DNA of 39,688 nucleotides from NCBI GenBank assembly GCA_045595105.1, contig JAZNZV010000165.1, positions 1-39,688 on the forward strand. The letters run 5' to 3'. How positions within the stretch are numbered: the stretch's first letter is position 1; each line of letters begins with the position of its first letter. The DNA is from Eubacteriales bacterium (GTDB taxonomy: Bacteria; Bacillota; Clostridia; Oscillospirales; SIG627). Position numbers and translations under genes: made by a program. The notes under the pieces are model-generated. The model did no database searches and was not told the DNA's origin. It worked only from the letters and a program-made list of their open reading frames with translations. Positions 6,627 to 33,583 of the stretch are shown here, one piece after another.

Positions 6627-6643
6627 AAGACAAAAAAGAAACG

Positions 6644-15828: not shown

Positions 15829-15949
15829 TTTCGTTCTCCTTCTTTAAGATTTCGTTTAGTACACGATAGAATTGCTCGCTCTTTATCGTCATTCCCTCGA
15901 TTGAGCTTTTTACTGCGCCATCTTGCATTATGTGAATGATGTTATACAT
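15809..15949 (-). CDS. Possible small ORF (46 aa)
   Basis: Hand-translated: MYNIIHIMQDGAVKSSIEGMTIKSEQFYRVLNEILKKENENDLPIL. Fills an otherwise non-coding gap and overlaps both neighbours. Confidence 0.3.
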   Translation of the reverse strand: MYNIIHIMQDGAVKSSIEGMTIKSEQFYRVLNEILKKENENDLPIL

Positions 15950-16472
15950 ATTTTTTAACTCCGATTTGATATTTGCACTTTAAGTGTTCCACGGTGCTTT
16001 TGTTGCTTTTTTCTAATAAGGTTTCAACCAAATCCAACAACGACAAATCATCGCACTTTTGACATTGTTCAAGAATTTTTCCGATGTAAAATTCCTTTGG
16101 TGTTAAATCTACACCTTGAATAAGCGGGGTCGGAATTCCGTCAGCATAAGGCGGTGTATTTTGAAAACAAGTTACACTTTTTTCGGTATCTTTGTAGTTG
16201 TACCCAATACCCCTTGTGGTGCTGTTTAACTTTTTCATCCACAAAAATTCTTTAACTCTCTCGGCTGGTGTTTCCATTTCGTCAAGAACGAAAAACGAAT
16301 AGTTTTCACCGTATTCATCAAAGTCTTTTTGCATATCTTCAACAGAATGTTTTCCGTTTCTTAACCTGATGATATGGTTCATATAGCGTTTATCAACTTC
16401 GCTACTACTACCGACATAAATTCTTTTTGTTTCGTTATGCTGAATTGCATATACTTTTCTCGGGTAGTTCAT
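15942..16472 (-). CDS. GIY-YIG homing-endonuclease-like protein
   Basis: KVYAIQHNETKRIYVGSSSEVDKRYMNHIIRLRNGKH. ATG 16472 after AGGAGAG (the track ORF extends into cro). Confidence 0.7.
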   Translation of the reverse strand: MNYPRKVYAIQHNETKRIYVGSSSEVDKRYMNHIIRLRNGKHSVEDMQKDFDEYGENYSFFVLDEMETPAERVKEFLWMKKLNSTTRGIGYNYKDTEKSVTCFQNTPPYADGIPTPLIQGVDLTPKEFYIGKILEQCQKCDDLSLLDLVETLLEKSNKSTVEHLKCKYQIGVKKYV

Positions 16473-16483
16473 TTTCTCTCCTT

Positions 16484-16502
16484 TCTGTGCTTTAAGCACA
16501 AT
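16484..16502. promoter_or_regulatory. Operator copy O_D: TCTGTGCTTTAAGCACAAT (7-1-7 palindrome TGTGCTT-T-AAGCACA)
   Basis: 19/19 identical to the site at 16736-16754. Lies between the cro stop and the GIY-YIG start. Confidence 0.55.
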
Positions 16503-16506
16503 CGAA

Positions 16507-16710
16507 TTACAAAAAAATAATATCGTCAACCGACATTTCGTAAATGGACGCAAGAGCCTTTGCGGTTACAATATCGGGCTGTGTAGTTTTATTTTCATAA
16601 CTCGCAAGGGTGTTTATGCTTATAGTTATGCCTTTTTCTTTAAGCCTTTCTTTTACCTCGGGTCTGCTTAATCCTGCATTTACTCGTGATGCTTTGAGTG
16701 TCATTCCCAT
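16507..16710 (-). CDS. Cro-like XRE-family HTH protein
   Basis: 67 aa. First gene of the leftward operon, divergent from the cI-like gene. LKASRVNAGLSRPEVKERL...INTLASYE. Confidence 0.75.
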   Translation of the reverse strand: MGMTLKASRVNAGLSRPEVKERLKEKGITISINTLASYENKTTQPDIVTAKALASIYEMSVDDIIFL

Positions 16711-16735
16711 TTTATCACCTCATTTCCGTTTTTTG

Positions 16736-16754
16736 TCTGTGCTTTAAGCACAAT
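16736..16754. promoter_or_regulatory. Operator O_R: TCTGTGCTTTAAGCACAAT
   Basis: Palindrome immediately downstream of the -10 of the leftward promoter. Confidence 0.6.
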
Positions 16755-16757
16755 AGT

Positions 16758-16786
16758 ATAATACACCCAAAAATGCAATTTGTCAA
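16758..16786 (-). promoter_or_regulatory. Early leftward promoter (TTGACA-17-TATTAT)
   Basis: Minus strand: TTGACA 16786-16781, TATTAT 16763-16758. Confidence 0.6.
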
Positions 16787-16803
16787 TAGGAAAATACAAA
16801 TTT

Positions 16804-16833
16804 CTGTGCTTTTCTATTGAAATTTTGTGCTTT
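16804..16833. promoter_or_regulatory. Two direct operator half-sites (CTGTGCTTT, TTGTGCTTT) flanking the -35 of the repressor promoter
   Basis: Half-sites at 16804-16812 and 16825-16833 share TGTGCTTT with the palindromic operators. Confidence 0.4.
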
Positions 16834-16844
16834 TGGTGTATAAT
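16817..16844 (+). promoter_or_regulatory. Repressor (maintenance) promoter TTGAAA-16-TATAAT
   Basis: TTGAAA 16817-16822, TATAAT 16839-16844. About 20 nt upstream of RBS AAGGAGGTGG. Confidence 0.55.
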
Positions 16845-16864
16845 AAGGAAAAGGAGGTGGTTTT

Positions 16865-17236
16865 GTGAGCAACAAAACAATATTTTCTACAAATTTAAAA
16901 AGATATATGGCTTTAAACGAAAAAAGTCGAAAAGACCTATCCGATGCTTTGGGAATTAGTTATTATACTGTAACTGATTGGGTAAACGGAAAAAAATATC
17001 CAAGAATGGATAAGGTTGAGAAATTGGCGAATTATTTCGGAATATTAAAATCCGATCTAATTGAAGAAAAGACGGAAGAACATCGAAATATGCAAAAAAA
17101 TAACGACATCATAACTGATGCCGTTGTAAAAATGCGTAATGACGAGCGTTTTCTCTCTATTGTGGAAAATTTACTTGCGTTAGATGCCGACAAATTGTCG
17201 ATAATCGAGCAAACCGCATTAGCTTTTAAGAAGTAA
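16865..17236 (+). CDS. cI-like XRE-family HTH repressor
   Basis: 123 aa, GTG start after AAGGAGGTGG. LKRYMALNEKSRKDLSDALGISYYTVTDWVNGKKYP. Divergent from the cro-like gene. Confidence 0.8.
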   Translation: MSNKTIFSTNLKRYMALNEKSRKDLSDALGISYYTVTDWVNGKKYPRMDKVEKLANYFGILKSDLIEEKTEEHRNMQKNNDIITDAVVKMRNDERFLSIVENLLALDADKLSIIEQTALAFKK

Positions 17237-17422
17237 TTTGTGGATTAAATCGAGTAGAGCAATATCGTTGCATTGTTCTAATAACTTAACAATTTCTGTT
17301 ATGTACTGTTCTTTCATAGAGGGAAAACATCCTTTCATGCGAGGTAGAACATTCGTTCTTAACAAGGATTATACAGAAAGCCCTTGTCGAAACATAGCGG
17401 AAATTGTTTACTTCACACTTTT

Positions 17423-17450
17423 TTCGAAATTTTATCAAGATTTGTACAAT
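17423..17450 (+). promoter_or_regulatory. Candidate internal promoter TTCGAA-16-TACAAT ahead of the membrane-protein and integrase genes
   Basis: Read directly from the sequence; TG lies adjacent to the -10. Confidence 0.3.
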
Positions 17451-17468
17451 AAGAATGAGGATTTAAAA

Positions 17469-17741
17469 ATGGAAAATGTATTTAACGTTGTAAGCAATAT
17501 GTTGTCTTTTATCTTTGACATAAGATTATTTGATGTTCCGCTTTACCTTTTTTATATCGGGATATCATGTATGATTGGTTACTGCATATCAATGTTTTTG
17601 ATTGGTTTCCCGTGTTCTATTTGGGAAGCAATTACCAAGAAAAAAGTCAACGAAGAAGGTCGAGAGAAAATCGTTTTCATACTTACTGTATGTTTAAGCA
17701 TTGCCTTTATATTAAGGGTTTTATACGAAAAAACAACATGA
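17469..17741 (+). CDS. Small membrane protein (candidate superinfection exclusion)
   Basis: ATG 17469 after GAGGA. 90 aa with 2-3 hydrophobic spans. Located between repressor and integrase. Alternative upstream starts at 17337 and 17238 lack an RBS. Confidence 0.55.
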   Translation: MENVFNVVSNMLSFIFDIRLFDVPLYLFYIGISCMIGYCISMFLIGFPCSIWEAITKKKVNEEGREKIVFILTVCLSIAFILRVLYEKTT

Positions 17742-17767
17742 ATTCAACACCAAAGGAGAAATGAAAA

Positions 17768-19180
17768 ATGAGAGTAGCACTATACCCACGTGTCAGCGGA
17801 CACGAACAAGAAGAGAATTATTCAATACCCGAACAGATTGACAGAATGAAAAAATATTGCGAGGCAAGAGATTGGCACGTTTACAAGGTTTATACCGATG
17901 CAGGATACACGGGGTCAAACATGGACAGACCAGCCTTGCAGACTATGATTAAAGATGTTGAAAAAGGCGTATTCGATATGGTGCTTGTTTATAAGCTCGA
18001 TCGGTTATCTCGTAGCCAAAAAGATGTATTGTATTTAGTTGAGGATGTATTTGACAAACACGGCATTTACTTTTCTTCTATGACAGAAAATTTTGATACA
18101 TCAACACCCTTTGGAAAAGCCATACTCGGTATTCTTGCAGTATTCGCACAGCTTGAGCGTGAACAAATCAAAGAGCGTACAATGATGGGAAAACAAGCGA
18201 GAGCAGAGGAAGGTAAATGGCATGGTTCTAAATGGTTACCCATCGGATATGATTATGACGGGGAAAACCTCGTCCAAAACGAATATGAGGTAATGCAGAT
18301 AAGAGAAATTGCGGACTTATTTTTAAAACGCACTCCCGTGAAAAAGATTGCGAAAATGGTTACCGAAAAAGGCTACCGACACAAGCATGGTGATGGTGAA
18401 TGGGATGCCAAGACCATAAGACGAGTTTTAGCAAACCAAACCAACATCGGCATGATAAAGCACCGAGACAAATACTATCAAGGAACACACAAGCCGATTT
18501 TCGACCAAAAGACATATGATGATATCATGGAGATAATGAACGAGCGAAGAGCGAAGTACGGCATAAGTTATAAACCGCACACCACGTTATTAGGTGGTAT
18601 GATTTACTGTAAAAATTGTGGTGCGAAATACGGAAAGCAACATAGCGGAAGCGGAATCCTTTATTACGCTTGCTATTCCCGAACAAAGAAAATGAAAGGC
18701 ATGATTAAAGACCCAAATTGCAGAAACAAGAATCACCGAATGGATAAGCTCGACAATGCTATTATTGCAGAAATCGGAAAATTGGCAATAGACAAAGACT
18801 ATATCGAACATCTCCGTCACAACAAGCCCGATAACAATGTAGCAGAAAAAGCAAAATCCATCACCCTTGAGATCGAAAAACTTAACGAACAAATCTCAAA
18901 AATGATGGATTTATACTCTATGGGGCATATGCCTCTTGAGATTATCAGCCAAAAGGTAACTGCAATCAACGAGACAAAAACGGCACTTGAAAAAGAATTG
19001 TCAGCGTTAAACGTGCCTGATACAGAGGACGATGTAATGCCGACAAAACAAATCCAAAGCCTTGCTACCTTGATGAACGATGAAGCCCTTACCCTTGAAG
19101 AAAAGAGAGCCATCGTACAATCACTTATTTATTATATCGAAATTGACGAAGAAAATGTATATATTCATTGGAAATTCTAA
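17768..19180 (+). CDS. int: Large serine recombinase (integrase)
   Basis: 470 aa. N-terminal resolvase domain ALYPRVSGHEQ...VYKLDRLSRS. Zinc ribbon CKNCGAKY...YYACYSR...CRN. C-terminal coiled coil. Confidence 0.9.
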   Translation: MRVALYPRVSGHEQEENYSIPEQIDRMKKYCEARDWHVYKVYTDAGYTGSNMDRPALQTMIKDVEKGVFDMVLVYKLDRLSRSQKDVLYLVEDVFDKHGIYFSSMTENFDTSTPFGKAILGILAVFAQLEREQIKERTMMGKQARAEEGKWHGSKWLPIGYDYDGENLVQNEYEVMQIREIADLFLKRTPVKKIAKMVTEKGYRHKHGDGEWDAKTIRRVLANQTNIGMIKHRDKYYQGTHKPIFDQKTYDDIMEIMNERRAKYGISYKPHTTLLGGMIYCKNCGAKYGKQHSGSGILYYACYSRTKKMKGMIKDPNCRNKNHRMDKLDNAIIAEIGKLAIDKDYIEHLRHNKPDNNVAEKAKSITLEIEKLNEQISKMMDLYSMGHMPLEIISQKVTAINETKTALEKELSALNVPDTEDDVMPTKQIQSLATLMNDEALTLEEKRAIVQSLIYYIEIDEENVYIHWKF

Positions 19181-19469: not shown

Positions 19470-20369
19470 TTATTTGAGCATACCATTCACTATATCTTGT
19501 ATCTCGCTGTAATCGTACCCAGCGTCCTCAAGCTTTTCTTTTCTCGCCTTGCCTTTTCCCCACTTGCCCTGAATGACTTCCTTTGCAATGGCAATGTTGC
19601 TTTTCTTCGTGAGCATGGCGTTGACTCGCTTCTGCACCTCTACAGCGTTATATCCTGCCTCGATAAGTAGCTTGATGCGCTCGTTGCCTACGCCCCACTC
19701 ACCTTTGATGACCTCTCTCGCAACCTCGTCAACCGACTTGAGCTTGGTAAAGCCGTTGAGTCCTGCCTTTTTGATGATGGACGGATAATCGACATAGACA
19801 TAGTCTTGGTCACACATGACTCCTGCGACCTTGTTTGTGCGGAGAGCGTTTGTCTCACCGCCAAACTGCCACATACCATAGTCACCCTTGTATGTGCAGT
19901 TCTTTGCCCATTGAGCAATCCACTTGTCATAGGATGCAAGCTTTTTCTCATGAGTATAGGTCTTGAGGAAATATGCCGTTGAGTAAATGCCGACATAATA
20001 TCCTGCGCTCTCCAAAGTCTCACAGAATGCGATGATGATATTTGTCAGCTTGTCCTTGCCGAGAGCCTTGAGCACCTTGTCCTCTACATCGAAGTAAATG
20101 GGATATTCAAAAGTCTTCCCCTTGAGCACGTTATTTATAAGGCAATTTGCTTCATTCTTTGCCTCTGCAACGCTTTCAGCCATAGAGTATAGGTAAACAC
20201 CCACGGGAAGGTTTCTCTCCTTGCAAGCCTTGTAAAACGTGTCAAAGCAAGTGTCCTTGTAAATCGTGTATGCTCCTCGGAGAATGACAAACTCGACTCC
20301 CTCGGCTTTTGCCTTGTCAAAATCGAATCCTCTCTGCCACTTGGAGACATCAATGCCGAATTTTCTCAC
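19470..20369 (-). CDS. Endolysin: GH25 muramidase with two C-terminal CW_7 repeats
   Basis: FGIDVSKWQRGFDFDKAKAEGVEFVILRG (GH25). Two copies of the E/K-V-I-x-G-x-WG-x-G-x-x-R motif. GTG start. Confidence 0.85.
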   Translation of the reverse strand: MRKFGIDVSKWQRGFDFDKAKAEGVEFVILRGAYTIYKDTCFDTFYKACKERNLPVGVYLYSMAESVAEAKNEANCLINNVLKGKTFEYPIYFDVEDKVLKALGKDKLTNIIIAFCETLESAGYYVGIYSTAYFLKTYTHEKKLASYDKWIAQWAKNCTYKGDYGMWQFGGETNALRTNKVAGVMCDQDYVYVDYPSIIKKAGLNGFTKLKSVDEVAREVIKGEWGVGNERIKLLIEAGYNAVEVQKRVNAMLTKKSNIAIAKEVIQGKWGKGKARKEKLEDAGYDYSEIQDIVNGMLK

Positions 20370-20608: not shown

Positions 20609-20890
20609 TTAAAGACCGATTTTTGCAACAAAATACCCCACAATAGCGGAGATAATGAGCGTTATTATCTGCTCCCACCGCTTTGCAGGGATACTTTTTA
20701 GGTTTTTCACATCGGTTTTTATCTCTTTCACATCGGTTTCTACCCGTTTCTCCCTCTCGTCAAGGCGAGAAACAGTATTTACTATCTTGTCAAGGTCGTT
20801 CTGCCGTTTCTCGACCTCGTCAATTCTGTGCGTGTTTGACTTTGACCGCTCCTCGACCTCAGTCAGCCGTCTTTCGTGCTCGAAGTCCAT
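20609..20890 (-). CDS. xhlA: XhlA-like lysis-associated membrane protein
   Basis: 93 aa. Coiled coil RLTEVEERSKSNTHRIDEVEKRQNDL plus a C-terminal TM helix. Confidence 0.6.
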   Translation of the reverse strand: MDFEHERRLTEVEERSKSNTHRIDEVEKRQNDLDKIVNTVSRLDEREKRVETDVKEIKTDVKNLKSIPAKRWEQIITLIISAIVGYFVAKIGL

Positions 20891-20894: not shown

Positions 20895-21674
20895 TCACCC
20901 CATTTTTCCGTCAATATAGTTTTTAAGGTCTGCCACGTATCTTATTTTTGCGGTACATTCTATAGCATCACTTACAGACACGTGTGTTGTAGGATAGAAG
21001 GTGCGTAAATTCTTGTACGCTTCAATAACGCCTTCGGGGAGATTGTTCTCAAGCGGGTCATCCACATACGGATATATGACTGTTGCGCCCTGAGTCAAGC
21101 TACCCGTTGAGGATATGTAGTAATCTCCGACATAGTTATCGTCCCAACTGTCGATAACGCCGATACGGCTAATGATAACGCCTCTCTCAAAGTCAATCTC
21201 GTCACATATCCATTGCTGTCCGTTGCCATCGGTAAAATTACCGCCACTCGGAACGGGCACACCCATCAGCCCGTAATGGGGAGATTCCATAGACAAAGTT
21301 CGTATATATCCCTCTTCACTCTCGAAGAATACGTGAATATATCCGAGGCTCGTGCCTACGCTGACTATCTCGGTGCCGTTCTGTATAGATTTTCCGTACA
21401 AGGTAAGTCCTTTTAACTTGCTCTCGCTTGAGTCGGTAAGGGTGATAAGCACCCCTACCGATTCGTTAATAAGACTCTGCGCTGACATCTGCTCGGATAA
21501 CTCCGCAAGGATCGCATTGGTATCAGCCATGTACTGCGATAGCATCTGCGCGAGATTTGCTATTTGCGTTTCCAACTTTGCGTCGTTTTGCGAGGCTATA
21601 GACATACCGCCGAGGTCATATCTGCGCTCAAGGTCAGCAGGTGTTCTTGCGCCCTGCCTATCTTGTTTGCTCAT
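20895..21674 (-). CDS. Virion protein, putative fibre or receptor-binding protein
   Basis: 259 aa. N-terminal RTPADLERRYDL motif and coiled coil, beta-rich C-terminus. Last structural gene before lysis. Confidence 0.45.
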   Translation of the reverse strand: MSKQDRQGARTPADLERRYDLGGMSIASQNDAKLETQIANLAQMLSQYMADTNAILAELSEQMSAQSLINESVGVLITLTDSSESKLKGLTLYGKSIQNGTEIVSVGTSLGYIHVFFESEEGYIRTLSMESPHYGLMGVPVPSGGNFTDGNGQQWICDEIDFERGVIISRIGVIDSWDDNYVGDYYISSTGSLTQGATVIYPYVDDPLENNLPEGVIEAYKNLRTFYPTTHVSVSDAIECTAKIRYVADLKNYIDGKMG

Positions 21675-21692: not shown

Positions 21693-24600
21693 TTAATCCC
21701 ATTGTATTGTTCCGTCCGAAAGGACAGTAAAGCCTAACTCTTTCAAGATAAGCTCCATTTCCTCACGAGAAATATCGTTTCTGTTGTTCAAGTAATCAAT
21801 AATCTCGTAATTGTAGGTATCGTCAGCGTTGTACTCGCTCTTGAAGAGGATGAGCTTTTCGCCATAATCCACATCAAGATTGTTGATATACTCAACGACC
21901 TTTGCTTTACGGCTACCGCTGATTGATTTTCCGCTTGCGTCTTTATCGGATTTGATGTCGTACAACTCGCTTGAGTATGCCTTGTAAGTCTCATAGCCAC
22001 CGACAGATTTTGCAACTGCGTACTTTTGAGGATACTCGTAAGCATAGTCGTACTCTTCCTTATTGCCCCAATAGTCCGAAGCACTAATGCCGAGACCGCT
22101 TGTTACCTTTTCCTGCTTTTCAAGCTGTTTGTCGGTTACCTTCTGCCACTCTCCGTCTTTGTTTAGACGATAGTGAAGGTCGGATATCGTGGCGTAATTT
22201 TCATCAATAGATATCGCATCACTGTCATATATGGTATATCTCGCCATAGCGTTAATCTGTTTTTGAATCTCACGCACTTGTTCGTACTTCTCGCTATCCG
22301 AAAGGTCACTATTTTGAATCTCACGCTTTTGCTTGTACAAGTCGGCAAGGTCGGCATTTACGGCATTGAACAGCTTGCTCTTGAGAATATCCTTGTCCGT
22401 TGCCTTGATTGACTTCGCATTGGTAGTCATTTCGTCTTTCATGTTGTAGAAATCAGAAATGTTTTGATTGTTCATCACGCTGTCCGTTGTAAACTTGTCT
22501 TTAAACGGAGCAATGATATTTCCAAGCGTTGAATTATCTCCTCTCTCTGCCTCGGGAGTAAGCATCGGCAATGCCACATCACCAATACCACCGCTATACT
22601 GATTGAGAAGGTAATTGATTTGATACGGGCTAAGGAAGTTCTGCTTTTCTCCAAGCCATTTGCTGATAGCATCCGTACTCTCGTCATACTGTTCTTCTTT
22701 CGGCAAGTCTTGCAATCTTGACGGAACAAGGTCTTCACCATACCAAGTCTTGTTGCTTGCCACTTGAAGGACGGGCGCAAGGATATTGTTGTCAATCGGA
22801 TTGTTTGGCGCAAGGTTAGATACCGCAAGTTCAAGGAAACTCTTTAAATCGGCTTCATCATCACCCGTTGCGACATTTGCAATCTGCTCAACGGCATTTT
22901 GAATCACCGCAACTGCTCTACCCTTTGGAATTCTAACAAACTGTCCATCTCCGTACTTTGCGACCACATAATAGTTTTCTTTTACATAGTCGGAAAGTTC
23001 ATCGTACTCCTCGTCATCATCCCAAAGGAGATTATTGAGAAGGAGCGCAGGAAGTCCTGCCATAGCAAACCTCGTAGCAAGACCAACCCAACCTTTAAGA
23101 CCATTCATCTTTGCTTCACGGATGTTTCGTGCTTGCTGAACCGTACCTTGAATAGAAGCGTTTAAGAATGTGACTCCGTTTCGGTTGAGAAGTTTTGCGA
23201 GATCGCCACCCGCAGAAAAGTTCGTTGTGACCCTTGAAGCATCGAGCATTGAAACATCAGCACTACGCCCTGCTTCTCTGCTTGCGATATACTCTGCGAG
23301 TCTCGGTGCCATTTCGATAGCGTTGTTAACTGCGCTGATTGCATCGAGAGGCATACCCAAAACTTTTCTAACAAGCGTTTTTTCTTTAAACTCACCCGTC
23401 TCGTTATCGAAATAGGTGTTCTGCTCACCGCCGTTGTCCATATACTCCGTATACCATTTGCCTTTTGTAGCCATTTCTACAAAGGCTCTCGGAAGATTGA
23501 GGTATGTTCTTGCAGGATGTTGGGAGTTAAGCAGAATGTCTTGTACATCCTTGATAGCGTTTGTTACCGCAAATACGGGATTGTACTGTGTCAGCAATCC
23601 TTTGTGGATTTTGCTTACGACACTTGCAACCTTGTTCGTGTACGCCATCTTTTCACTTTTAGGCTTTAAAGCATCGTACATTTCCTCGGTAATTTCAAAC
23701 TCAACTCTCTCGCCATTTTCAAAGACAGTAAACGTAGGATTTCTGCCGTTCTTGCCCTCTTTGAGAAGTCCGTCCTGAGAGTCAATGCTGTCAAGAATCT
23801 CGTCAATGCTTGTTTTGCTATTTGCAACAGTAGAGCCGAGAGCGTTCTTCAACTCTACACCGAAACGATTTCTCGCAACCGCCTTGAAGGTCTGTATCGT
23901 GCGCTCTGCCATTGTGTCAAACAAAGGCAAGATGTCACTACTACCGCCCGTTGCTCTCTTGACGGGAGCATTTACACCCGTTCTTCCCGTATCGAGAGGA
24001 ACGTTGATGTTAAGCCCCGAGTCACCTACTCTGTGTATCGGCACATAATGAGGATACATTTCAGCCCACAAGTCAGCCGTTTCCTGCGAGATAACGCCGT
24101 TGTCGACCATCATGTTCCGCAAGAAATTCATGTAGGCATACACATCATCGGCAAAACTCTTAAACTCAGGATTTTCCGCTTCAAGCTGACTTACCGCTTC
24201 TCGTGACACATCTGCCGTAACAGAAAAACCGAAAACAGCCTTGTTTTCTACGCCGTCATAGCGTTCCTCAAGGCTCATTCTGTCAATATTGTGTTTGTGA
24301 TACAGATATTCAAAGAATGACTTGGTTTTGCCCGTTTTCTCAACTTCCTTGCGGATAGAGTCCAAAGATTTTACTCCGTCTCTGCCTTTTTGCATAAAGC
24401 GTTGCGCCTTTTGTTCGGCATAGCGAATAGTATTCCACCTTGCTTCAAGTTCTCGGTTTTTCGTTTTCTTCGATATCCTTTCAAAGACCATGCCTTTATC
24501 AAGAACATACTCTTTGAAATAAGACCAAAGTCCACGCTTTTTCTGCTTCTTTGCATCGGGCTTTTCGGTCAACACTTCTGCAACGTTTCCACCATCGGGG

Positions 24601-27600
24601 TCGTTTGGTGGTATCATTGTCTGTTGCCCTCTAATATTGCCACCTTTGCTTGTCGTGACCTCGTGGGTCGGCAATGTCGGTGGTGTCGGTGCGGAAGGAG
24701 CTATGTCCGCTTTTGCCGTAGGTTTAACCGCATCTACTTTTGAAGGAGCAATATCCGCAGGAACGGCTCTATCACCCGCAGATTCAAGGTATCTATCAAA
24801 CTCGGTTTTGTAATACTTGTTAATCTCTTGCGATTTCAAAAGATTACGATATTTATAGTTTGGCGGTACTGTTGCTCCGTCAACCGTAGTCCAACCATCC
24901 ATAAGCATACCGTTAAGCAAAATCTCAATGCGCTTTGAACAAGCGTTGTTTTCTGCTCCGTTGTCCTCGATAATTGCGTTTAAGCCTTTTTCGATTTCAG
25001 CGTAGGTGTAATGGAAATTGTCAAGTAATCCTGCAATCTCGCTTGTTGTGAGTCGTTTTGTGCCGTGCCATCCCTCGTTGAGCCATCCGTTTTCGTCTTG
25101 CCATCTCTCACCCTTTATGCTGTTGTGAAGGTCGATAAGCATATACTGAGCGTATTCTTGGAAGAAAGGCTTTACTTCGGGATGTTCGTACATATAAGCC
25201 TTGACTTTTCTGTTTCCAACATCTTCAAGGTTTCTATCGTAAAGCGGGTCATCGGGAACATAACCATCTTCGGCTTCATCGTAGTACGGTGCTTCGGTTT
25301 CGGGTGGTGCATCCTCGTCAGTAATGCTATCGAGAAGTTCTTTCTGTTGTGCCGTTTCTTCACTCTGCATTTGCTCGATTTGCTCATTTAAAGCGTTATA
25401 CCTATTCAACATTTGCGTAAACGCTTCATAGTCACCCGTTTCGTCTGCCGTTTTTGCCATGTCATACGCTTTGCTTTCCAACTCGTCTTTTTCTCTTATC
25501 AAGTCATAGACAGTAGGCTCGGATGGGGCAATATCGGCAATAGGCAACTCTGCCGTTGTGCTTTCCTGAGTCGGTGTATCCACCTTAGAAGGTGCGACAC
25601 CGGTCTCAAGCCGTAAGTCACTTGCTGATACGCCGTGTCTGCCTAAAGGTTTGGTGTCACTCTCTTTCGACAGAGAGTATCGAATATCAGCCTTTTCGGT
25701 AGGATTCGGATTCGCAACGGATTTAATTTGATTTGACTCAAACGCAATGGCAACAGTAGAGGATGCGTATACATCCAAACCGCTTGCGTATGCGCCGTTG
25801 TCAACGATGTTCTTGAAGATAACGCCATCGTAGCCGTTTTCTTTGGCTTTTTGTGCGTAGTCTCGTGTGTTTAAGTATTTAACCGCATTTTTTCTTATGG
25901 ATTCATCGGAGAAATTATCACTTGCAATCTCGAAAAGCCCGTAAAAATCAATATCGTTCTCACCAAGTTTCTTATAAGCACTCGCAAGAGACATTGTGAA
26001 TTTGTCGGGGATATTGCTTTTTGTCGACTCTCTCAACTCGCTCCTAAACACGCCGATATCTTCCCATCCTGCCAAGTCAACGAGAGCGGATTTTTCGTCT
26101 TCGGTCAAGGAATTGTATTTGTCATATTCCTCTTGCGAAAACTCGCTTGATATCCTATCCCAACTGCGACCCTCGACATCGACCACCAACGGATTTTTAA
26201 GGTTAAGATAAACCTTGTAATTTGCACTACCCGTACCCAAGCCCGTCCAATCTCTAAACTCGTCATAGAGTCCTTTTGCGGTCTCACTTGAAGCAACCTC
26301 GTCACCATCTTCAAAGAGAGTAAACTTTCCGTCCGTTTCCGTGACTTCGTACTCGTCCATTCCGATCTCGGCAAAAAACTTGTTGAAATCGTCTGCCGTA
26401 TGGAAAGTATGTGCCGTGTAGGTCTCGCTCGTTCCGCTATAGCTCTTTGCTACTTTCGGATTATCCACGAAGAAGAAACTTGTGCCATCATCGGAAAACA
26501 ACTGTTTAAACTCGTGAAATCCTGCGTCTTGAGAGCCGTGATACATAACAGTCAAATTGCCGTTATCATCTCTCATTTTGGAGTCTTTGAAATACTTCTC
26601 CTGCCCCTCGGTGAGCTTTTTGCCCTCGCTATCGGAAGAAAGGGAATAGCGGATATCGGGATTATCCGTAGGTTTTAAATTGTCAATGTTCTTTATCTGC
26701 TCGGGATAAAAGGCAATATATACTCGATGTCTTTCTCCATCGGGATTCACTCTGCCACCGCCGATATGAGTAATTCCGTCATAGCCCATAGACTCAAGGA
26801 CGCTCATTGCCGTGTCTTTAGCTTCCCAAACGGGATATTCCTCGTAACGGAAATTCGCTACCATTGCTCTAAAAAACTGCTCGTTTGTATCACCTTCAAA
26901 GAATCGGGCATCGGGGAAAGCCTTTTTCCAAGCCTCATAATCTCCTACGGCATCCATATCCATAGGATTTTTGATGTTCAAATATGCCTCGTACACTTGC
27001 GGATTGTTGCCCTTGCCTTTGTCGGTATATGACTCTGCAATGTTTTTACTGTCAGTAAAGTACGTTCCTGCGCCAAACAGACCAAAACGTGACTCACCAA
27101 AAGTATCGAACACAGTATGACCGCCCTTTGATGTGCCGTGATACATTACTTTGAGATTTCCGTCCTCGTCTCTTACCTTGCTATCCTTGAAATACTCGCT
27201 CTGTTCTTTGGTAAGAGAATACTGTTTGCCCTCAACCTTTGCCGTGCCACTATTGCGATAAGCGTCCTCAAACGCTTTTCTCACCCTCTCAAGGTCTCTT
27301 GCTTCCTTTGTTCCTGCCGTTGCTATCTTGCAAAGATACTTGATTTCATCGTAGACCTTTTGGAACACATTTCTGTGATTTGTGGATAAGCTGTTGATAA
27401 AATCGGTGTCGTTAAAGAGATATTCGCCAACAAGGTCTGCGACAACCTCTTTCTTGATTTTCTTGAAGCCATCTACGCCCTGATATCCCTCGACATCCTT
27501 GTACAACTGTCTTGTGTCGAAAAGTCTCTGCTTGTAATCGTTCTTGTTCTTCGCATACTCAAATATCGTCTCTTGAAGCGTATCGTAAAACTCCGTACCC

Positions 27601-29393
27601 TCAAGAACGTGAGTAATCTCATGACCGACTGTAGTCTGCCATGCTTGCTTAGAGTCCATGTTAATAGCAATGCCGTCCTCGGTAACGTATCCGTTGACAG
27701 TCTTGCCACCAACCGCAAAGCCCGACTCTCTCAGCTTGGCGTTGTTCGTGAAATCAAAAGAAACACCCTTGTCTGCTGATATCTTTGCGATAATATCAAC
27801 AAACTCGTGTGTTCTTCTTGTGTTATTCAGTATTCCGCTATCAATAGCCTTTTGGACAGTACCACGATACTTTTCGTCATACTTTGAAACATCTGCGGTA
27901 AAGGTCTCGCCACGCATTGCGCTGTCTCTGTATGTCATTAAGATGCGATTGTCTTTACCCTCTTTTGCAAGGTTTATGACTTCCTCGGACAACTGCTTTT
28001 GAATGTCCCAACGCTTTGAATTGTTAAGGATGTCCTCAACGGCTGTTTTTAACTCCTCGCCCTCATACAACTCCTCAAGCTCTTTTATAGCCTCGGTCTC
28101 GCTATCAATGGTGTCCTTGTAGGTCTTGTAGGTCTCACCGCCGAGAATTTCTTCTATAGTGTCGGTAGTGATATATCCTTTTTCGATATCCTCAAGGACT
28201 TCATCGTAGATTTTTGCTTTTTCTTTCTCTGTGAGCTTCTTTCCGTCTGTTTCTTTCTCAAAGATGCGATCTTTATAGACTTTGTTTACGACAGTTTCCT
28301 CGTTTTTAGCCAAGCCCGATGTGTAGTCAACACCATTAACCTTTGACTTTACGGCATTGAAGCTACCCATACCACCGCCGAGAAGACCGCCACTCCAAAA
28401 TGCTTCAATTTTGGCATCCATAGCCTCTTCCGACCAAAGCATTTCGGTAAGTGTTTTCTCGTCTTGATAGGTGAGCCATTGACCAAAACGGCTTATATCC
28501 TCGGAGAGCCATTCTTCACCGCCCTCACCAACAAAATCCGCACCGATTTTCAAGCCGTTTCTCACAAATTTGTTTGAAATCTTTCTCGCAAGCAACTTTG
28601 TGAGACCATCGTCAAGCGTTTTGCCACCGAATTTGATACCGCCCGATATCTTTTCGGTCAGTATCTCTGCGCCTGCGGAAATAGCACCGCTTATTCCTGC
28701 CTCGCCGTATGTTGCACCCTCGTTAAAGGCTTGCTCGGTTTCACCACCAAAAGCAGTAACTCCCGATGTGACAAACCACGGCACACCGACCGCTTGCAAC
28801 ACTCCTTGACCTAACAACTGACCGCCCGATTGTATAACGGAATCCGTTTTGTCACCCATAACAGAATCTTCTTCGGGGTCTGTTAAAAGGTTAGCAATCG
28901 TTAAAGCGTTCATCTTTTTGGCAAGAGCCTTTTCGTCATACAAGTCTTTTGCGATAAAGCCCTTAACATCTTCTGCGAATTTGTCCGCACCAAACAGACC
29001 ACCCACACCGCCGACAACATATGCTCCTGCATCAACGGCTTTTTCGCCCATACCGAGAAGTCCTGCGTACAAATTATCGGCTATATCTTGAGAAGTACCC
29101 AAAATAGCTTTGCCGATACTTTTTACACTTATGCCGTCCTCAAATGCGCCCTTATCAACCCATGTGCGTTTTGTCTCGCCAAAACTACCGCTTGCACCGC
29201 CATGCTCTGTGCCCGTGCTACTGATGTGCGTGGTTGTCTGCTTTTTTACGGGAGCAATGTCTTCCTCTTCTTCGGTTTCGACCGCCGTAACCTTTCCGTC
29301 ATTGCCGACTACATAATCAGCCTTTGTCTGCTTTTTCTTTTTCTTCTTTTTGGTGGTGATGTTGCCGTTATCGTCCACATAATAGTTAGCCAT
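21693..29393 (-). CDS. Giant polyvalent virion (likely ejected/internal) protein, 2566 aa
   Basis: Single intact ORF, 19% of the genome. Gly-rich hydrophobic N-terminus. HEITH at aa 591-595 (27609-27623). Two paralogous YHG[TS]...G[TS]xxF modules (H752, H952). ADIAPS linkers. About 1000-aa C-terminal region resembling conserved regions I recall from large phage/ICE proteins (from memory, not searched). Confidence 0.7.
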   Translation of the reverse strand: MANYYVDDNGNITTKKKKKKKQTKADYVVGNDGKVTAVETEEEEDIAPVKKQTTTHISSTGTEHGGASGSFGETKRTWVDKGAFEDGISVKSIGKAILGTSQDIADNLYAGLLGMGEKAVDAGAYVVGGVGGLFGADKFAEDVKGFIAKDLYDEKALAKKMNALTIANLLTDPEEDSVMGDKTDSVIQSGGQLLGQGVLQAVGVPWFVTSGVTAFGGETEQAFNEGATYGEAGISGAISAGAEILTEKISGGIKFGGKTLDDGLTKLLARKISNKFVRNGLKIGADFVGEGGEEWLSEDISRFGQWLTYQDEKTLTEMLWSEEAMDAKIEAFWSGGLLGGGMGSFNAVKSKVNGVDYTSGLAKNEETVVNKVYKDRIFEKETDGKKLTEKEKAKIYDEVLEDIEKGYITTDTIEEILGGETYKTYKDTIDSETEAIKELEELYEGEELKTAVEDILNNSKRWDIQKQLSEEVINLAKEGKDNRILMTYRDSAMRGETFTADVSKYDEKYRGTVQKAIDSGILNNTRRTHEFVDIIAKISADKGVSFDFTNNAKLRESGFAVGGKTVNGYVTEDGIAINMDSKQAWQTTVGHEITHVLEGTEFYDTLQETIFEYAKNKNDYKQRLFDTRQLYKDVEGYQGVDGFKKIKKEVVADLVGEYLFNDTDFINSLSTNHRNVFQKVYDEIKYLCKIATAGTKEARDLERVRKAFEDAYRNSGTAKVEGKQYSLTKEQSEYFKDSKVRDEDGNLKVMYHGTSKGGHTVFDTFGESRFGLFGAGTYFTDSKNIAESYTDKGKGNNPQVYEAYLNIKNPMDMDAVGDYEAWKKAFPDARFFEGDTNEQFFRAMVANFRYEEYPVWEAKDTAMSVLESMGYDGITHIGGGRVNPDGERHRVYIAFYPEQIKNIDNLKPTDNPDIRYSLSSDSEGKKLTEGQEKYFKDSKMRDDNGNLTVMYHGSQDAGFHEFKQLFSDDGTSFFFVDNPKVAKSYSGTSETYTAHTFHTADDFNKFFAEIGMDEYEVTETDGKFTLFEDGDEVASSETAKGLYDEFRDWTGLGTGSANYKVYLNLKNPLVVDVEGRSWDRISSEFSQEEYDKYNSLTEDEKSALVDLAGWEDIGVFRSELRESTKSNIPDKFTMSLASAYKKLGENDIDFYGLFEIASDNFSDESIRKNAVKYLNTRDYAQKAKENGYDGVIFKNIVDNGAYASGLDVYASSTVAIAFESNQIKSVANPNPTEKADIRYSLSKESDTKPLGRHGVSASDLRLETGVAPSKVDTPTQESTTAELPIADIAPSEPTVYDLIREKDELESKAYDMAKTADETGDYEAFTQMLNRYNALNEQIEQMQSEETAQQKELLDSITDEDAPPETEAPYYDEAEDGYVPDDPLYDRNLEDVGNRKVKAYMYEHPEVKPFFQEYAQYMLIDLHNSIKGERWQDENGWLNEGWHGTKRLTTSEIAGLLDNFHYTYAEIEKGLNAIIEDNGAENNACSKRIEILLNGMLMDGWTTVDGATVPPNYKYRNLLKSQEINKYYKTEFDRYLESAGDRAVPADIAPSKVDAVKPTAKADIAPSAPTPPTLPTHEVTTSKGGNIRGQQTMIPPNDPDGGNVAEVLTEKPDAKKQKKRGLWSYFKEYVLDKGMVFERISKKTKNRELEARWNTIRYAEQKAQRFMQKGRDGVKSLDSIRKEVEKTGKTKSFFEYLYHKHNIDRMSLEERYDGVENKAVFGFSVTADVSREAVSQLEAENPEFKSFADDVYAYMNFLRNMMVDNGVISQETADLWAEMYPHYVPIHRVGDSGLNINVPLDTGRTGVNAPVKRATGGSSDILPLFDTMAERTIQTFKAVARNRFGVELKNALGSTVANSKTSIDEILDSIDSQDGLLKEGKNGRNPTFTVFENGERVEFEITEEMYDALKPKSEKMAYTNKVASVVSKIHKGLLTQYNPVFAVTNAIKDVQDILLNSQHPARTYLNLPRAFVEMATKGKWYTEYMDNGGEQNTYFDNETGEFKEKTLVRKVLGMPLDAISAVNNAIEMAPRLAEYIASREAGRSADVSMLDASRVTTNFSAGGDLAKLLNRNGVTFLNASIQGTVQQARNIREAKMNGLKGWVGLATRFAMAGLPALLLNNLLWDDDEEYDELSDYVKENYYVVAKYGDGQFVRIPKGRAVAVIQNAVEQIANVATGDDEADLKSFLELAVSNLAPNNPIDNNILAPVLQVASNKTWYGEDLVPSRLQDLPKEEQYDESTDAISKWLGEKQNFLSPYQINYLLNQYSGGIGDVALPMLTPEAERGDNSTLGNIIAPFKDKFTTDSVMNNQNISDFYNMKDEMTTNAKSIKATDKDILKSKLFNAVNADLADLYKQKREIQNSDLSDSEKYEQVREIQKQINAMARYTIYDSDAISIDENYATISDLHYRLNKDGEWQKVTDKQLEKQEKVTSGLGISASDYWGNKEEYDYAYEYPQKYAVAKSVGGYETYKAYSSELYDIKSDKDASGKSISGSRKAKVVEYINNLDVDYGEKLILFKSEYNADDTYNYEIIDYLNNRNDISREEMELILKELGFTVLSDGTIQWD

Positions 29394-29405: not shown

Positions 29406-30716
29406 TTACTTTATCTGTATGTACTTGTTCTGTCTGCCTTCCCAATACCACTTTGTTCCGTCTTTTGCTTTCCATACGTTCTGTATTACGGTCTGCTTCT
29501 GTCCCGACAAAGTTTGCGTTTTAATCTGTATCGTCTCGCCCGACTTAGAAAGAGTTCCGTGACCGCTTATGCCCTTCGGCTGATAGCCGTTGGAGAATGT
29601 GCCGTACTTGGAACAATCCTTGTTTTTGGAGCCTTGATAGTATGCCGTGTTGACCGCATATGTTTTTGTGGTATTGCCAAACAACTTGCTTTTGTAGGAC
29701 GAACCGCTTGACGATGACTTGCTACCGCCACCACCGCCACTGCTGAATGTAACAGTTTTAGCCTTGTTTGCTTCGTCAAACTGCCGTTTTTCTTCTGCCA
29801 ACTGCTGACGCTTCAATTCCTGCTCTGCCTCAAACATTGCGAGATCCTGCTTGCGCTGTTTCTTCTGCTCCTCAAGTTTCGCAATTTCAAGAGCGTTCTC
29901 TTTTGCGTCCTTTGCCTTGAGCCTTTTAATCTCTTCGTCAAACTGTCTAATGCTCTCCTTGTACTGCTTAACTTCAAGGTCATAATTCTTATTAAACTGT
30001 CTAACGCTTTCGTTATATTCTTTAAGCTGAAGCGCATGGTTTTGATTGTACTGTCTAATCTCCTCGGCAAGAGCGTTCTCGGTATTGATTTGGTCGAGTA
30101 CATCTTGATAACGAGCGTAATATCTGTCCTCGGTCTCGGTTTTCTTGTTGGATTTTTCAAGGATAAGCTGATTCTTGTACTGAAATCCTTGCAAGGACAA
30201 TTCAAGCTGTTGCTGAAGCGCATTGTAGGCAATTTCCGCAAGCACGCTATTGTTCTGCAACCTTGCGTCCTTAATAGCGTTTTCGTAACTCAAAACCGCC
30301 TTGCTGAATACCTCTCTTGCCGTTGACACTCGGTTTTGATAGGTGTTGAACATACTGACTTGAGAGCTTTCGCTATATCCCGTACCCGTCAAGCCTTGAG
30401 AAGCCATCTGTTCAGCGTTTGCGCTGTACTGTCCGCTTTGCTTCTGCCAATCAACGTATGCGCCCGATTGCTCTTTCAAGTAATCCTTGTGCGCTTGTTC
30501 CTTTTCCTGCTCTATCTTCTCAATAGTAAAATCGGTCTGCTCCTGCTGTAACTGTGTCTGCTTGTCCGCCCAAGCCTTTGAAGCATCAATTTGAGCCTGA
30601 TAATACTTATCCGACTCGTTAATCATGCCACCATATGTCTGTTCGACTTCGTTTAGGGCTTCTTTTTTGTCCTCTTCGATAGCCTTGAAGCGTTCATCGT
30701 TGTAATTGACCGCCAT
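29406..30716 (-). CDS. Coiled-coil virion protein with a Gly/Ser linker and C-terminal beta-rich domain
   Basis: 436 aa. Long Q/E/K heptad region, SSGGGGGSKSSSSGSS, C-terminus YGTFSNGYQPKGI...WKAKDGTKWYWEG. Confidence 0.5.
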   Translation of the reverse strand: MAVNYNDERFKAIEEDKKEALNEVEQTYGGMINESDKYYQAQIDASKAWADKQTQLQQEQTDFTIEKIEQEKEQAHKDYLKEQSGAYVDWQKQSGQYSANAEQMASQGLTGTGYSESSQVSMFNTYQNRVSTAREVFSKAVLSYENAIKDARLQNNSVLAEIAYNALQQQLELSLQGFQYKNQLILEKSNKKTETEDRYYARYQDVLDQINTENALAEEIRQYNQNHALQLKEYNESVRQFNKNYDLEVKQYKESIRQFDEEIKRLKAKDAKENALEIAKLEEQKKQRKQDLAMFEAEQELKRQQLAEEKRQFDEANKAKTVTFSSGGGGGSKSSSSGSSYKSKLFGNTTKTYAVNTAYYQGSKNKDCSKYGTFSNGYQPKGISGHGTLSKSGETIQIKTQTLSGQKQTVIQNVWKAKDGTKWYWEGRQNKYIQIK

Positions 30717-30730: not shown

Positions 30731-32410
30731 TCACCGTTTTATGTATCCACCGACAAAAACCTCTAACGTAGCCGTTTCAAGAGAAAACCTTGTCGGAGAA
30801 TGGAATTTAAGCTGAATATCTTTGAATTTCTTCCGCTTAATTCTGCTGACAAAATAGTCTGTGACATCGTTGTATGTGCCGATGTTCTCAAAGTCTGTGT
30901 CCTCAAGTTTTGCGTATACCGAAATATCACCCTTTGCTTCGACAACGCATCCTCTCTTGTTGGTAGTTTTCAGCTTCTGCGGATGATTGAATTTGTCCTT
31001 TGGTGTTACCCAATAGCTTTCAACATCGCTCTCGGTATCGGTCAGCGTGTAAACGCCGTCCTCTGTACCCAAGTACAAAATGCCGTTGTGTACTTTTGTA
31101 CAAGTGACCTTTTTGCCGAGTTCCCAATAAAACCACTCGTATTCTATGTGATTTTCAATGGTAAAGGCAGAACGAGAGTCAGCGAGATATACCTTGTTGT
31201 CAACAAAGACGAGAAGATATCCTTCCCATTCCTCAAGAATCATGTCCTTGTAATTCGTTTCCGCAATCAGTTTTCTGTCAACGAGAGAGCTTCTGTGCGC
31301 TATTGCTTGCTCGGTAGTGATATCTCCGCTTATACCTTCCATTCCTCGATCGGAAAAGAAAATGATATCATCGTTGAAGTTAATTGCTTTGCCGACACAT
31401 CCCGTAGAAATGCTTGAGTGAGTGTTAGGATAGATTTTTCCGTACTCGCTATCAATGGTAGGCGTATGGTAGAAAACTGTTGTGTTTGATTGTGAAGGCT
31501 CACGGAACACCCATAACACGTTGTTTCCTGCTACCATGCCCTTGACCTCGGCAGAGTCAAGCCCCTCGTTGTAGTAATCTAAGTCACTACAATACGTTGG
31601 GTCGTTAAGGCTACAATGCCAAATCGTATTCGGAAAATCCTTGTTTCCGCTAAAAAACACCCTATTATCAAATACTTGCAATAGAGTGCATTTGTGTATT
31701 CTGTCCTGATATCCGCTTACTGTCTTTTTGAATGTTACCGACACATTATCTTGTCCGTCTGTTAAAGGTGCGGACGGGGCAGAGGAGAAGATAATCTTTC
31801 CGTTTTCATAATCTACCGAGAAATCAGTAACCTCGGAAGAATTGACCTTAACTCTCGGTCTAAAATCTCCGTCAATATTCTGCGAGTCAAGACAAAACTC
31901 CTTGCTCGTTCCGTCTGCGAGAAATGTGTTGATGCGCTTTCCCGTCAGCAAGTTCACATCTTCGTGTATCGTGCCACCGCCCGATGGTTTCCTGCCGATA
32001 GATGTTGTCGGTATATATCCCTCGACGGGCTTCATTGTGCGTCCATCGTACTGCAAATAGGTTGAGCCGTCCTTGAAATACCATGTGTTGTTATAAACAA
32101 ATCCGTCACTCCTTGAGGCATTTAAGCCCTTGTAAAGCAATGACTTTACACCCTTTGCAATCTTGTAAAGTTCAGTACCGCTATGCACAAGGCACATTTC
32201 GGTATTTCCAACGGCATAAAAAAACACACCATATATAGGTGCGTCAAAAGAGTTCGCAAGTTCCATTTCGGGGCGTGTTCGTATACTCTCGGTTTCCTTA
32301 TAGTCTTTCCACACATTCAAACTGTCGGGGCTTCTTACAAGGTTTATTTCCTCGCCACGAAAGTCCACGCCTCGAAAATTACTGTATATTCTTTTAACAA
32401 GGTCAGCCAT
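30731..32410 (-). CDS. Large virion protein, possible tail hub/nozzle (beta-rich)
   Basis: 559 aa. TAATG coupling with the upstream gene. No family recognised with confidence. Confidence 0.45.
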   Translation of the reverse strand: MADLVKRIYSNFRGVDFRGEEINLVRSPDSLNVWKDYKETESIRTRPEMELANSFDAPIYGVFFYAVGNTEMCLVHSGTELYKIAKGVKSLLYKGLNASRSDGFVYNNTWYFKDGSTYLQYDGRTMKPVEGYIPTTSIGRKPSGGGTIHEDVNLLTGKRINTFLADGTSKEFCLDSQNIDGDFRPRVKVNSSEVTDFSVDYENGKIIFSSAPSAPLTDGQDNVSVTFKKTVSGYQDRIHKCTLLQVFDNRVFFSGNKDFPNTIWHCSLNDPTYCSDLDYYNEGLDSAEVKGMVAGNNVLWVFREPSQSNTTVFYHTPTIDSEYGKIYPNTHSSISTGCVGKAINFNDDIIFFSDRGMEGISGDITTEQAIAHRSSLVDRKLIAETNYKDMILEEWEGYLLVFVDNKVYLADSRSAFTIENHIEYEWFYWELGKKVTCTKVHNGILYLGTEDGVYTLTDTESDVESYWVTPKDKFNHPQKLKTTNKRGCVVEAKGDISVYAKLEDTDFENIGTYNDVTDYFVSRIKRKKFKDIQLKFHSPTRFSLETATLEVFVGGYIKR

Positions 32411-33025: not shown

Positions 33026-33583
33026 TTATATAATAACCGCATTATATTTGTACCAATAGTTTTCGTTTTTTACGCTTACAGTATTTCCGCTTATCGTTAC
33101 ACTAAAAGTAGACATATTGTTTGAAAGCCTTGTAACTTTTTTATTGTTTTCATCATAATTTGATACAATGAATAAATCACTATTACCACTCGTTGACATT
33201 ATGACCAATGCGCTTTTTTTAACGGGTAAAGTAAACTGTTGTGTTGTGCTTGAATAACCACCTAATTTGAACCTATCATTTATACTTTCGATGTCACTTT
33301 GCACATCAGCACACTTGCCCGACACCTCGTCAATATCACTCTGTGCTTTATCAATCTGTTTTTTTAGCTCTAAACCTTGATTTGCGGACAACGGCTTCTT
33401 GGCATCGTTAGTCGTTAAATTATCAACGATATCGTTAAAACTCACCTTGTTTTTCAGCGCATTGCCCGTTGCTTCTGCATCAGCACCTTGTCCTTTTTTT
33501 GAAAGCGTGTTGTCAATCAAAGGGACAGTAACAATACTGCCCCTTATAACTTCTTTGTTTTCTATATTTCCGTTCAAACTCAT
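33026..33583 (-). CDS. Tail fibre-like protein with an AT-rich C-terminal domain
   Basis: N-terminus IDNTLSKKGQGADAEATGNAL and LTTNDAKKPLSANQGLEL (fibre motifs), then a coiled coil. The 3' half is visibly AT-rich. Confidence 0.55.
   Translation of the reverse strand: MSLNGNIENKEVIRGSIVTVPLIDNTLSKKGQGADAEATGNALKNKVSFNDIVDNLTTNDAKKPLSANQGLELKKQIDKAQSDIDEVSGKCADVQSDIESINDRFKLGGYSSTTQQFTLPVKKSALVIMSTSGNSDLFIVSNYDENNKKVTRLSNNMSTFSVTISGNTVSVKNENYWYKYNAVII

Follow-up and report, generated by a model that had tools for sequence, protein, structure and literature searches.

A giant gene at the end of the virion block of a ~40-kb gut Clostridia phage encodes a further polyvalent protein

The window analysed here is a stretch of 39,688 nucleotides (contig JAZNZV010000165.1 of the Eubacteriales bacterium assembly GCA_045595105.1), and its largest gene is the subject of this report. 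According to the listing of open reading frames (ORFs) and their translation, this giant gene is a single ORF on the minus strand (21693..29393) that starts with ATG and encodes 2566 amino acids (aa) followed by a stop codon, with a Shine-Dalgarno-like AAGGCGG about 7 nt 5' of the ATG. With 7701 of the 39688 nt it takes up 19.4% of the window. An initial annotation, made from the sequence alone, had described one uninterrupted frame of 2566 aa covering 19% of the genome. This is borne out, and the sequence features that it quoted are all found in the translation at the residues it gave: a lysine run near the N-terminus, an HExxH motif at aa 591-595, two paralogous modules of a YHG type, a module with YMYEHPEVKPFF and CSKRIEILL, and a C-terminal region put at about 1000 aa, which is present and extends over roughly 950 aa.

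The giant protein has an identical entry in a public protein collection (P0001) and 994 homologous database proteins at E<=1e-5. The top 119 homologues are 2345-3613 aa long, have the same overall layout, and are mostly encoded on contigs of 38-42 kb. Given the number of homologues and the layout common to the best 119, the giant ORF is not a chance ORF and is clearly a gene. Hundreds of its relatives are near full length and occur among ~40-kb phages of gut Clostridia; they are found in gut metagenome-assembled genomes (MAGs) of Clostridia, namely of Ructibacterium, Acutalibacteraceae, Eubacteriales, Butyricicoccus and Lachnospiraceae. A megablast search of the phage collection with the window gave no nucleotide match, the best identity of the giant protein to the phage sequence collection is <=23%, and a search of PDB sequences with the whole protein returned only noise. 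Counts of coverage and conservation given below refer to the best 119 relatives (117 or 120 sequences in some counts), and conservation was computed on alignments of the family made region by region rather than on one full-length alignment. All parts of the protein are given with their window coordinates on the minus strand.

Two kinds of domains are recognized in the giant protein by Pfam, both far above their gathering scores. ART-PolyVal (PF18760), an ADP-ribosyltransferase (ART) domain, is found in two copies (E 3.8e-33 and 115.6 bits on the whole protein, against a gathering cut-off of 31.2), and LPD38 (PF18857) is found at aa 2127-2284 (22542..23015; E 3.8e-33 and 115.6 bits for the whole protein, E 1.4e-34 and 120.3 bits for the tile, against a gathering cut-off of 27). 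Both families were derived from the survey of polyvalent proteins by Iyer et al. 2017 (PMC5512222). The giant protein and its relatives show three features of that class, namely at least two distinct conflict-related domains, a context of phage virion genes, and a shared core combined with varied effectors. Therefore, we conclude that the giant protein is a further polyvalent protein of the published class, which leaves the concept of Iyer et al. 2017 standing.

The first ART-PolyVal domain (ART1) covers aa 742-908 (26670..27170; tile E 1.7e-24, 87.6 bits). The second (ART2) covers aa 943-1232 (25698..26567; tile E 8.8e-19, 69.1 bits) and is split by a large insert, its Pfam match falling in two stretches. 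The copies carry the YHG motifs VMYHGT (aa 749-754) and VMYHGS (aa 949-954) and align with each other by BLASTP at E 6e-13, with TYFTD placed opposite FFFVD. In the clade of ART-PolyVal (Tox-ART-HYD2-like) the active site is made up of His in strand 1, Tyr in strand 2 and Asp in strand 5 (PMC5512222). With strands assigned by motif position, the corresponding residues are H752, Y778 and D872 in ART1 and H952, F974 (in place of Tyr) and D1189 in ART2. Phe occupies the position of F974 in at least 95% of relatives. ART2 has many positions conserved at >=95% and is better conserved than ART1, which is covered to >=80% in just 45 of 117 relatives. In relatives, the slot between the HExxH domain and ART2 is filled by the PBECR RNases PBECR3 and PBECR5 or by LPD3, LPD23, MuF_C, GNAT or DUF6782. 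Given the variability of this slot and the conservation of ART2, ART1 is an interchangeable cassette and ART2 is fixed equipment of the clade.

Beyond the LPD38 model, the C-terminal part of the protein is a module of ~950 aa (aa 1620-2566), mostly helical and modelled by AlphaFold2 (AF2) with a predicted local distance difference test (pLDDT) score of ~80-90, which far exceeds the 189 positions of the Pfam model. Its first part (aa 1620-2126; 23016..24536) precedes the LPD38 match, and a helical extension (aa 2285-2566; 21696..22541; pLDDT ~80-90) follows it; both are present in 119 of 119 relatives. A hidden Markov model (HMM) of aa 1620-2130 matched 22 of 38 distant LPD38 proteins and one of aa 2120-2300 matched 32 of 38, while HMMs of the N-terminal regions matched 0 of 38. 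Searches with tblastn connect the module to gp20 of Pagevirus, to Thalassomonas phage BA3, to Vibrio podophages and to the 'DarB-like' protein of BcepIL02; the first ~100 aa of the C-terminal extension are detectable in Pagevirus gp20. Foldseek against the predicted viral structures of BFVD returned 62 matches at E<=1e-3, with alignments of ~900 columns to dozens of them at E 1e-18 to 1e-25. The N-termini of these matches carry RelA/SpoT, type I methylase, lytic transglycosylase or helicase domains, and one match is from Escherichia phage PTXU04. The presence of the same C-terminal fold under such diverse N-termini points to a common module onto which cargo is fused. Nothing at E<=0.001 was found in the PDB with the C-terminal AF2 model by Foldseek, and relaxed Pfam and PHROG scans of the C-terminal tiles annotated nothing further.

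The region between the N-terminus and ART1 contains a helical domain that ends in an HExxH unit (aa 361-735; 27189..28313) and is a probable zincin-like metallopeptidase, as judged from its motif and its predicted structure. The motif is HEITH (aa 591-595). In alignments of relatives H591, E592 and H595 are invariant or nearly so, as is D653, and E598 and E649 are invariant. The AF2 model places the HExxH motif and the downstream Glu residues all on helices, with strands at fragment positions 487-490, 509-511 and 516-519 followed by the HExxH helix at 525-538, which also bears E598, and then by further helices with E649 and D653 (pLDDT 80-94). As modelled, this order of strands and helices, together with the motif and the downstream Glu, matches the zincin core described by Iyer et al. 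(PMC5512222). The domain belongs to a family with 2678 cluster representatives at E<=1e-3; among the 150 matches listed for the representative search, all are close relatives and none bridges to known zincins. With hhalign, the strands and the HExxH motif aligned weakly to an ATLF-like region in a different LPD38 protein (P0131; E 0.0075, probability 5%). Iyer et al. call a region of the phage N4 virion RNA polymerase a metallopeptidase (PMC5512222); hhalign of our HExxH profile to this region left the motif unaligned, and the N4 region itself has no Pfam peptidase match. A separate protein of 2450 aa (P0159) carries three tandem HExxH domains together with PBECR3 and LPD3, and Pfam finds no ART or LPD38 in it; its architecture indicates that the HExxH domain is also used in other polyvalent layouts. 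This protein rises above the gathering score of Peptidase_M48 solely when its three HExxH copies are summed.

The N-terminus proper begins with a poorly conserved tail (aa 1-59; 29217..29393), which contains the lysine run (aa 15-21) and the first EDIAPV motif. Residues 1-40 are aligned in just 22 of 119 relatives, and the tail has pLDDT <50 where it was modelled. The lysine run is encoded by mixed AAA and AAG codons without a long homopolymer, and a slippery poly-A tract at this place is thus ruled out. The following region (aa 60-360; 28314..29216) is helical, rich in Gly, Ala and Ser (34% G+A+S) and specific to the clade: it is kept in 115-118 of 119 relatives, its AF2 model consists of helices with pLDDT ~50-70, Pfam and PHROG gave no match even in relaxed scans, and its HMM found nothing in distant LPD38 proteins. 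It includes GAYVVGGVGGLFG at aa 123-135 and GVPWFVTSGVTAFGG at aa 203-217. Kyte-Doolittle analysis found no transmembrane segment, the maximal 19-residue mean being 1.29 in the N-terminal region and 1.38 in the whole protein. A membrane-spanning N-terminus was therefore rejected, as the hydropathy threshold is reached by no segment.

Between ART2 and the C-terminal module lie two linkers and a small domain. The first linker (aa 1245-1379; 25257..25661) is an acidic, Pro-containing, possibly coiled region (24% D+E, 7% P) with variable coverage in relatives. It is followed by the 'YMYEH' module (aa 1380-1540; 24774..25256), a small alpha/beta domain with no assigned function, predicted at pLDDT ~85-95 and present in 98 of 119 relatives, in which YMYEHPEVKPFF is located at aa 1400-1411 and CSKRIEILL at aa 1485-1493. 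No Pfam, PHROG or PDB match was obtained for this module, Foldseek having been run on the uncropped model with poor sensitivity, and its HMM had no match among distant LPD38 proteins. The second linker (aa 1541-1619; 24537..24773) is Pro-rich (11% Pro) and predicted to be disordered (pLDDT ~30).

Short motifs recur at the junctions of these parts. EDIAPV is found at aa 44-49 and ADIAPS at aa 1286-1291, 1546-1551 and 1562-1567, while DIRYS occurs at aa 913 and 1236; in the giant protein, all DIAP and DIRYS sites are confined to module boundaries or disordered linkers. Across 120 members of the family, DIAP was observed 226 times against 3.2 expected from composition, although members are related and the counts are non-independent. 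Of these occurrences, 76 precede the N-terminal domain, 82 separate the aa 1380-1540 module from the C-terminal module, and 53 fall between the HExxH domain and later modules; one is inside the C-terminal module, none is inside the N-terminal or HExxH domains, and 14 are left unclassified by these categories. Neither the remaining genuine ORFs of the window nor distant LPD38 proteins contain the motif. Such a pattern would be expected of cleavage or docking sites.

The functional proposals of the initial annotation, a polyvalent protein as described by Iyer et al. 2017 with ADP-ribosyltransferase and zincin peptidase domains, can now be compared with these results, and in essence they hold. 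The transferases and the class assignment agree with the Pfam matches described above, and the relationship between the two YHG modules agrees with the BLASTP alignment. For the zincin peptidase, the motif and topology fit, but no significant match was returned by Pfam, by the PDB profile search or by Foldseek. The N-terminus described as Gly-rich and hydrophobic is Gly-rich but has no segment of transmembrane grade.

The giant gene is the last of the virion block, co-oriented with the virion genes and placed between the tail genes and the lysis cassette. Upstream of it on the minus strand are genes for TerS (2450-2884), TerL (993-2453), the portal (over the end junction, ending at 38490), a scaffold-like protein (37625-38395), the major capsid protein (36792-37589), several proteins of virion size with no assigned function, a tail-fibre-repeat protein (33026-33583), a 559-aa virion protein (30731-32410) and a 436-aa protein with no assigned function (29406-30716). 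Downstream on the same strand are genes for a 259-aa protein with no assigned function (20895-21674), an XhlA/holin-like protein (20609-20890) and an endolysin with GH25 and CW_7 domains (19470-20369); a GH25 muramidase with CW_7 cell-wall-binding repeats fits a Gram-positive host. Neither Pfam nor PHROG gave a match for the flanking 259-aa and 436-aa genes. In a related metagenomic contig (L003) the gene order is that of the window, and unannotated genes of other sizes (501 aa and 355 aa) flank the giant gene there. Among the annotated genes of the window, none was recognized as coding for a tail tube, sheath, chaperone or tape measure.

The portal ORF crosses the window ends (1-990 and 38490-39688, minus strand); joined, it encodes 618-641 aa, and the joined product aligns across 524 residues to the portal of Palmer, a Pagevirus of Bacillus megaterium. 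Since the portal ORF is continuous over the joined ends, the window is a complete, circularly permuted genome of ~39.7 kb. It contains no terminal direct repeat of 20-200 bases. A large serine recombinase/integrase is encoded on the plus strand (17768-19180; PHROG E 4.5e-134), which indicates that the phage is temperate, and some relatives of the giant gene lie inside MAG contigs of 103 kb and 486 kb, consistent with prophages. Another contig (JAFVSI010000039.1, 54,212 bases) holds two copies of the C-terminal part of the giant gene (L009, L010) ~40,057 bases apart with identical match statistics, for which the simplest explanation is a concatemeric assembly of a circular ~40-kb phage genome. 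Elsewhere in the window, a 203-aa ORF (15942-16553, minus strand) has GIY-YIG/homing-endonuclease-like PHROG matches (E 4e-10) and lies near replication and recombination genes in a low-GC stretch at ~16-18 kb. GC skew and AT skew flip sign in blocks 3000-7000 and 16000-19000, which are the clusters of plus-strand genes; this is consistent with divergent transcription units around a lysogeny/early region.

Taken together, we consider the best explanation, with a probability of roughly 0.65, to be that the giant protein is a packaged, ejected and self-processed polyvalent effector protein encoded by a temperate, Pagevirus-like podophage with gut Clostridia as hosts. By analogy with studied relatives, the protein would be synthesized late and taken up into the capsid. 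Its C-terminal module would provide for incorporation and then for exit through the portal and tail at infection, and it may add to a trans-envelope conduit, a role that would account for the essentiality of a relative. Along with the DNA, the N-terminal cargo would enter the host, where the HExxH domain could cut the polyprotein at the DIAP/DIRYS junction motifs and the freed ARTs could ADP-ribosylate host targets in the manner of T4 Alt. Iyer et al. proposed both autoprocessing by metallopeptidase domains and Alt-like action of ARTs (PMC5512222).

Published relatives back a packaged, ejected and possibly essential role by analogy. JC1 gp69 was detected with 51 unique peptides in CsCl-purified virions (PMC9144972). 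Gp47 of phi24B is abundant in virions and unseen in the cryo-electron microscopy reconstruction, and it has been put forward as an ejection protein carried inside the capsid (bioRxiv 10.64898/2026.04.10.717836). Knockdown of the polyvalent gene gp25 of PTXU04 strongly reduced plaquing (PMC11879866). The position of the gene, which the initial annotation had likened to that of ejection proteins, holds by synteny with Palmer gp20, with the related metagenomic contig and with Bcep22-like podophages (PMC9144972).

Several points weigh against this explanation. The experimentally studied relatives have just the C-terminal module in common with the giant protein, at 17-23% identity, and we infer from phage name and annotation only that PTXU04 gp25 is the BFVD match A0A482MT02. 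More generally, we infer packaging, ejection, cleavage and ART activity of the giant protein and its close relatives by analogy. For the peptidase, the HExxH tile had a single, unrelated Pfam match at E<=5 (E 0.09), the profile of aa 460-740 had one chance-level match among PDB sequences (EspP), Foldseek against the PDB with the whole 681-aa model gave a best E of 0.29 (with poor sensitivity for the uncropped HExxH unit), and the links to the ATLF and M48 zincins cover the HExxH helix only. ART2, with Phe in place of the family Tyr, may be inactive or altered, to judge from its residues. Instead of being cleaved, the junction motifs could serve as docking peptides or form strands at the ends of domains, and DIRYS may be no more than the end of the ART repeat unit.

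An alternative that overlaps the packaged-effector explanation rather than competing with it outright would make the giant protein mainly a structural ejection or penetration protein, with a channel through the Gram-positive envelope composed of the C-terminal module and the Gly-rich N-terminal region, an HExxH domain that acts on wall peptides instead of the giant protein itself, and ARTs that are secondary passengers. The effect of the PTXU04 knockdown on plaquing is easier to explain by a structural role than by an anti-defence one, the authors of the phi24B study propose such a role for gp47 with wall-peptide activity included, conservation within the giant protein is highest in the module regions, and neither another ejection-protein homologue within the virion module nor a classical ejection protein in the genome was recognized. 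Such a channel is harder to reconcile with a protein that has no transmembrane-grade segment and shows no resemblance to solved internal-core or ejection proteins (no PDB sequence match and, with Foldseek against the whole PDB, nothing significant at E<=0.001, the ejection-protein content of the library being unconfirmed), and the high conservation of ART2 suggests that the enzymatic cargo matters too. We regard a mainly structural role as unlikely, although it deserves some weight. A tape-measure-like tail protein, for which the initial annotation had suggested this gene might substitute, is effectively excluded: the gene is indeed the largest, its product is largely helical with a Gly-rich region, and it lies downstream of tail genes, but it has no tape-measure PHROG or Pfam match, genes for a tail tube, sheath or chaperone were not recognized, and the portal, the 559-aa protein and the giant gene all resemble counterparts in Pagevirus podophages. 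JC1, the Bcep22-like relatives and phi24B are likewise podophages (PMC9144972; bioRxiv 10.64898/2026.04.10.717836).

It is also conceivable, though improbable in our view, that the protein is not packaged and acts as a cytoplasmic enzyme complex, expressed late or in lysogens, for host takeover, superinfection exclusion or as a toxin. The phage is temperate (by its serine recombinase and the copies inside large MAG contigs), and ART domains of the ART-PolyVal clade are found in toxin systems as well (PMC5512222). What argues for packaging instead is that the gene has the orientation of the virion block and forms its last part, that each experimentally examined protein with the C-terminal module (JC1 gp69 and phi24B gp47) is virion-associated, and that a gene taking 19% of a 40-kb genome in hundreds of relatives fits an obligatory virion component. 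Returning to the packaged effector, a more far-reaching form of this explanation can be offered tentatively, and we hold it to be possible but doubtful. Here the C-terminal module, which has no solved relative, would be the essential device for DNA ejection or translocation in a very large group of short-tailed phages, a counterpart of the internal ejection proteins of T7-like phages with swappable N-terminal cargo, and in the present clade (E/A)DIAP(V/S/T) and DIRYS would be a cleavage code read in cis by the HExxH peptidase, which would free each module after entry.

Of all phage proteins, the polyvalent ones are believed to be the first that a cell meets, and to our knowledge almost none has been studied biochemically. 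The clade described here consists of very abundant, uncultured, ~40-kb temperate phages of gut Clostridia. If our explanation is true, the giant protein would be a natural delivery vehicle with a cargo slot that has been repeatedly re-armed, the junction motifs would represent a concrete and testable processing code, and the conserved Tyr-to-Phe change in ART2 would point to a host target important across the clade. It would also help to explain how short-tailed phages cross the thick Gram-positive wall when no classical ejection protein is recognized. We found no description of the N-terminal 740 aa, the aa 1380-1540 module, the junction motifs, the Tyr-to-Phe ART2 or the full extent of the LPD38 module.

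The known systems resemble the giant protein in different respects. The LPD38 polyvalent proteins of Iyer et al. 2017 (PMC5512222) share with it the combination of ART-PolyVal and LPD38, the giant multi-domain build, the swappable cassettes and the context of virion genes. Unlike in that published class, no Pfam or PHROG model accounts for the N-terminal 740 aa or the aa 1380-1540 module here, Pfam zincin models fail to recognize the HExxH domain, and the DIAP motifs are specific to the clade. T4 Alt serves as the functional model of a capsid-delivered ART that enters with DNA and modifies host RNA polymerase (PMC5512222); it differs in belonging to the R-S-E rather than the H-Y-D clade and in being a single-domain protein that is not part of a polyprotein. 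Among LPD38 polyvalent proteins of other phages, gp47 of the Stx phage phi24B (2811 aa, with LPD5, LPD1, LPD38 and MuF-C) and gp25 of Escherichia phage PTXU04 (2198 aa) are of the same type and differ in their sets of effectors.

The 'DarB-like' proteins of Bcep22/JC1 type (~4500 aa) are similar in sequence and position: the C-terminal module of the giant protein matches that of BcepIL02 over aa 1636-2098 (E 1e-6), and in Bcep22, BcepIL02 and JC1 the gene is the last big one of the virion module before the lysis genes and takes up ~22% of the genome. They differ in that their phages infect Gram-negative hosts and in that they are named, by annotation, as homologues of P1 DarB. P1 DarB has N6-adenine methyltransferase and helicase domains. 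Pfam finds no methylase or helicase domain in the giant protein, and its sole link to P1 DarB is the C-terminal module of the BcepIL02 'DarB-like' protein.

The Pagevirus phages Page and Palmer provide a comparison from a Gram-positive host. Palmer gp20, a hypothetical protein of 1678 aa, has LPD38 alone by Pfam and no ART domain, and it is not matched by HMMs of the N-terminal regions or of the aa 1380-1540 module of the giant protein. What it does share is the C-terminal module (23% identity over aa 1740-2385, E 5e-22) and its place in the genome after tail and wall-degrading genes and ahead of the holin and lysis genes, and the portal of Palmer and its ~560-aa virion protein are also distantly homologous to those of the window.

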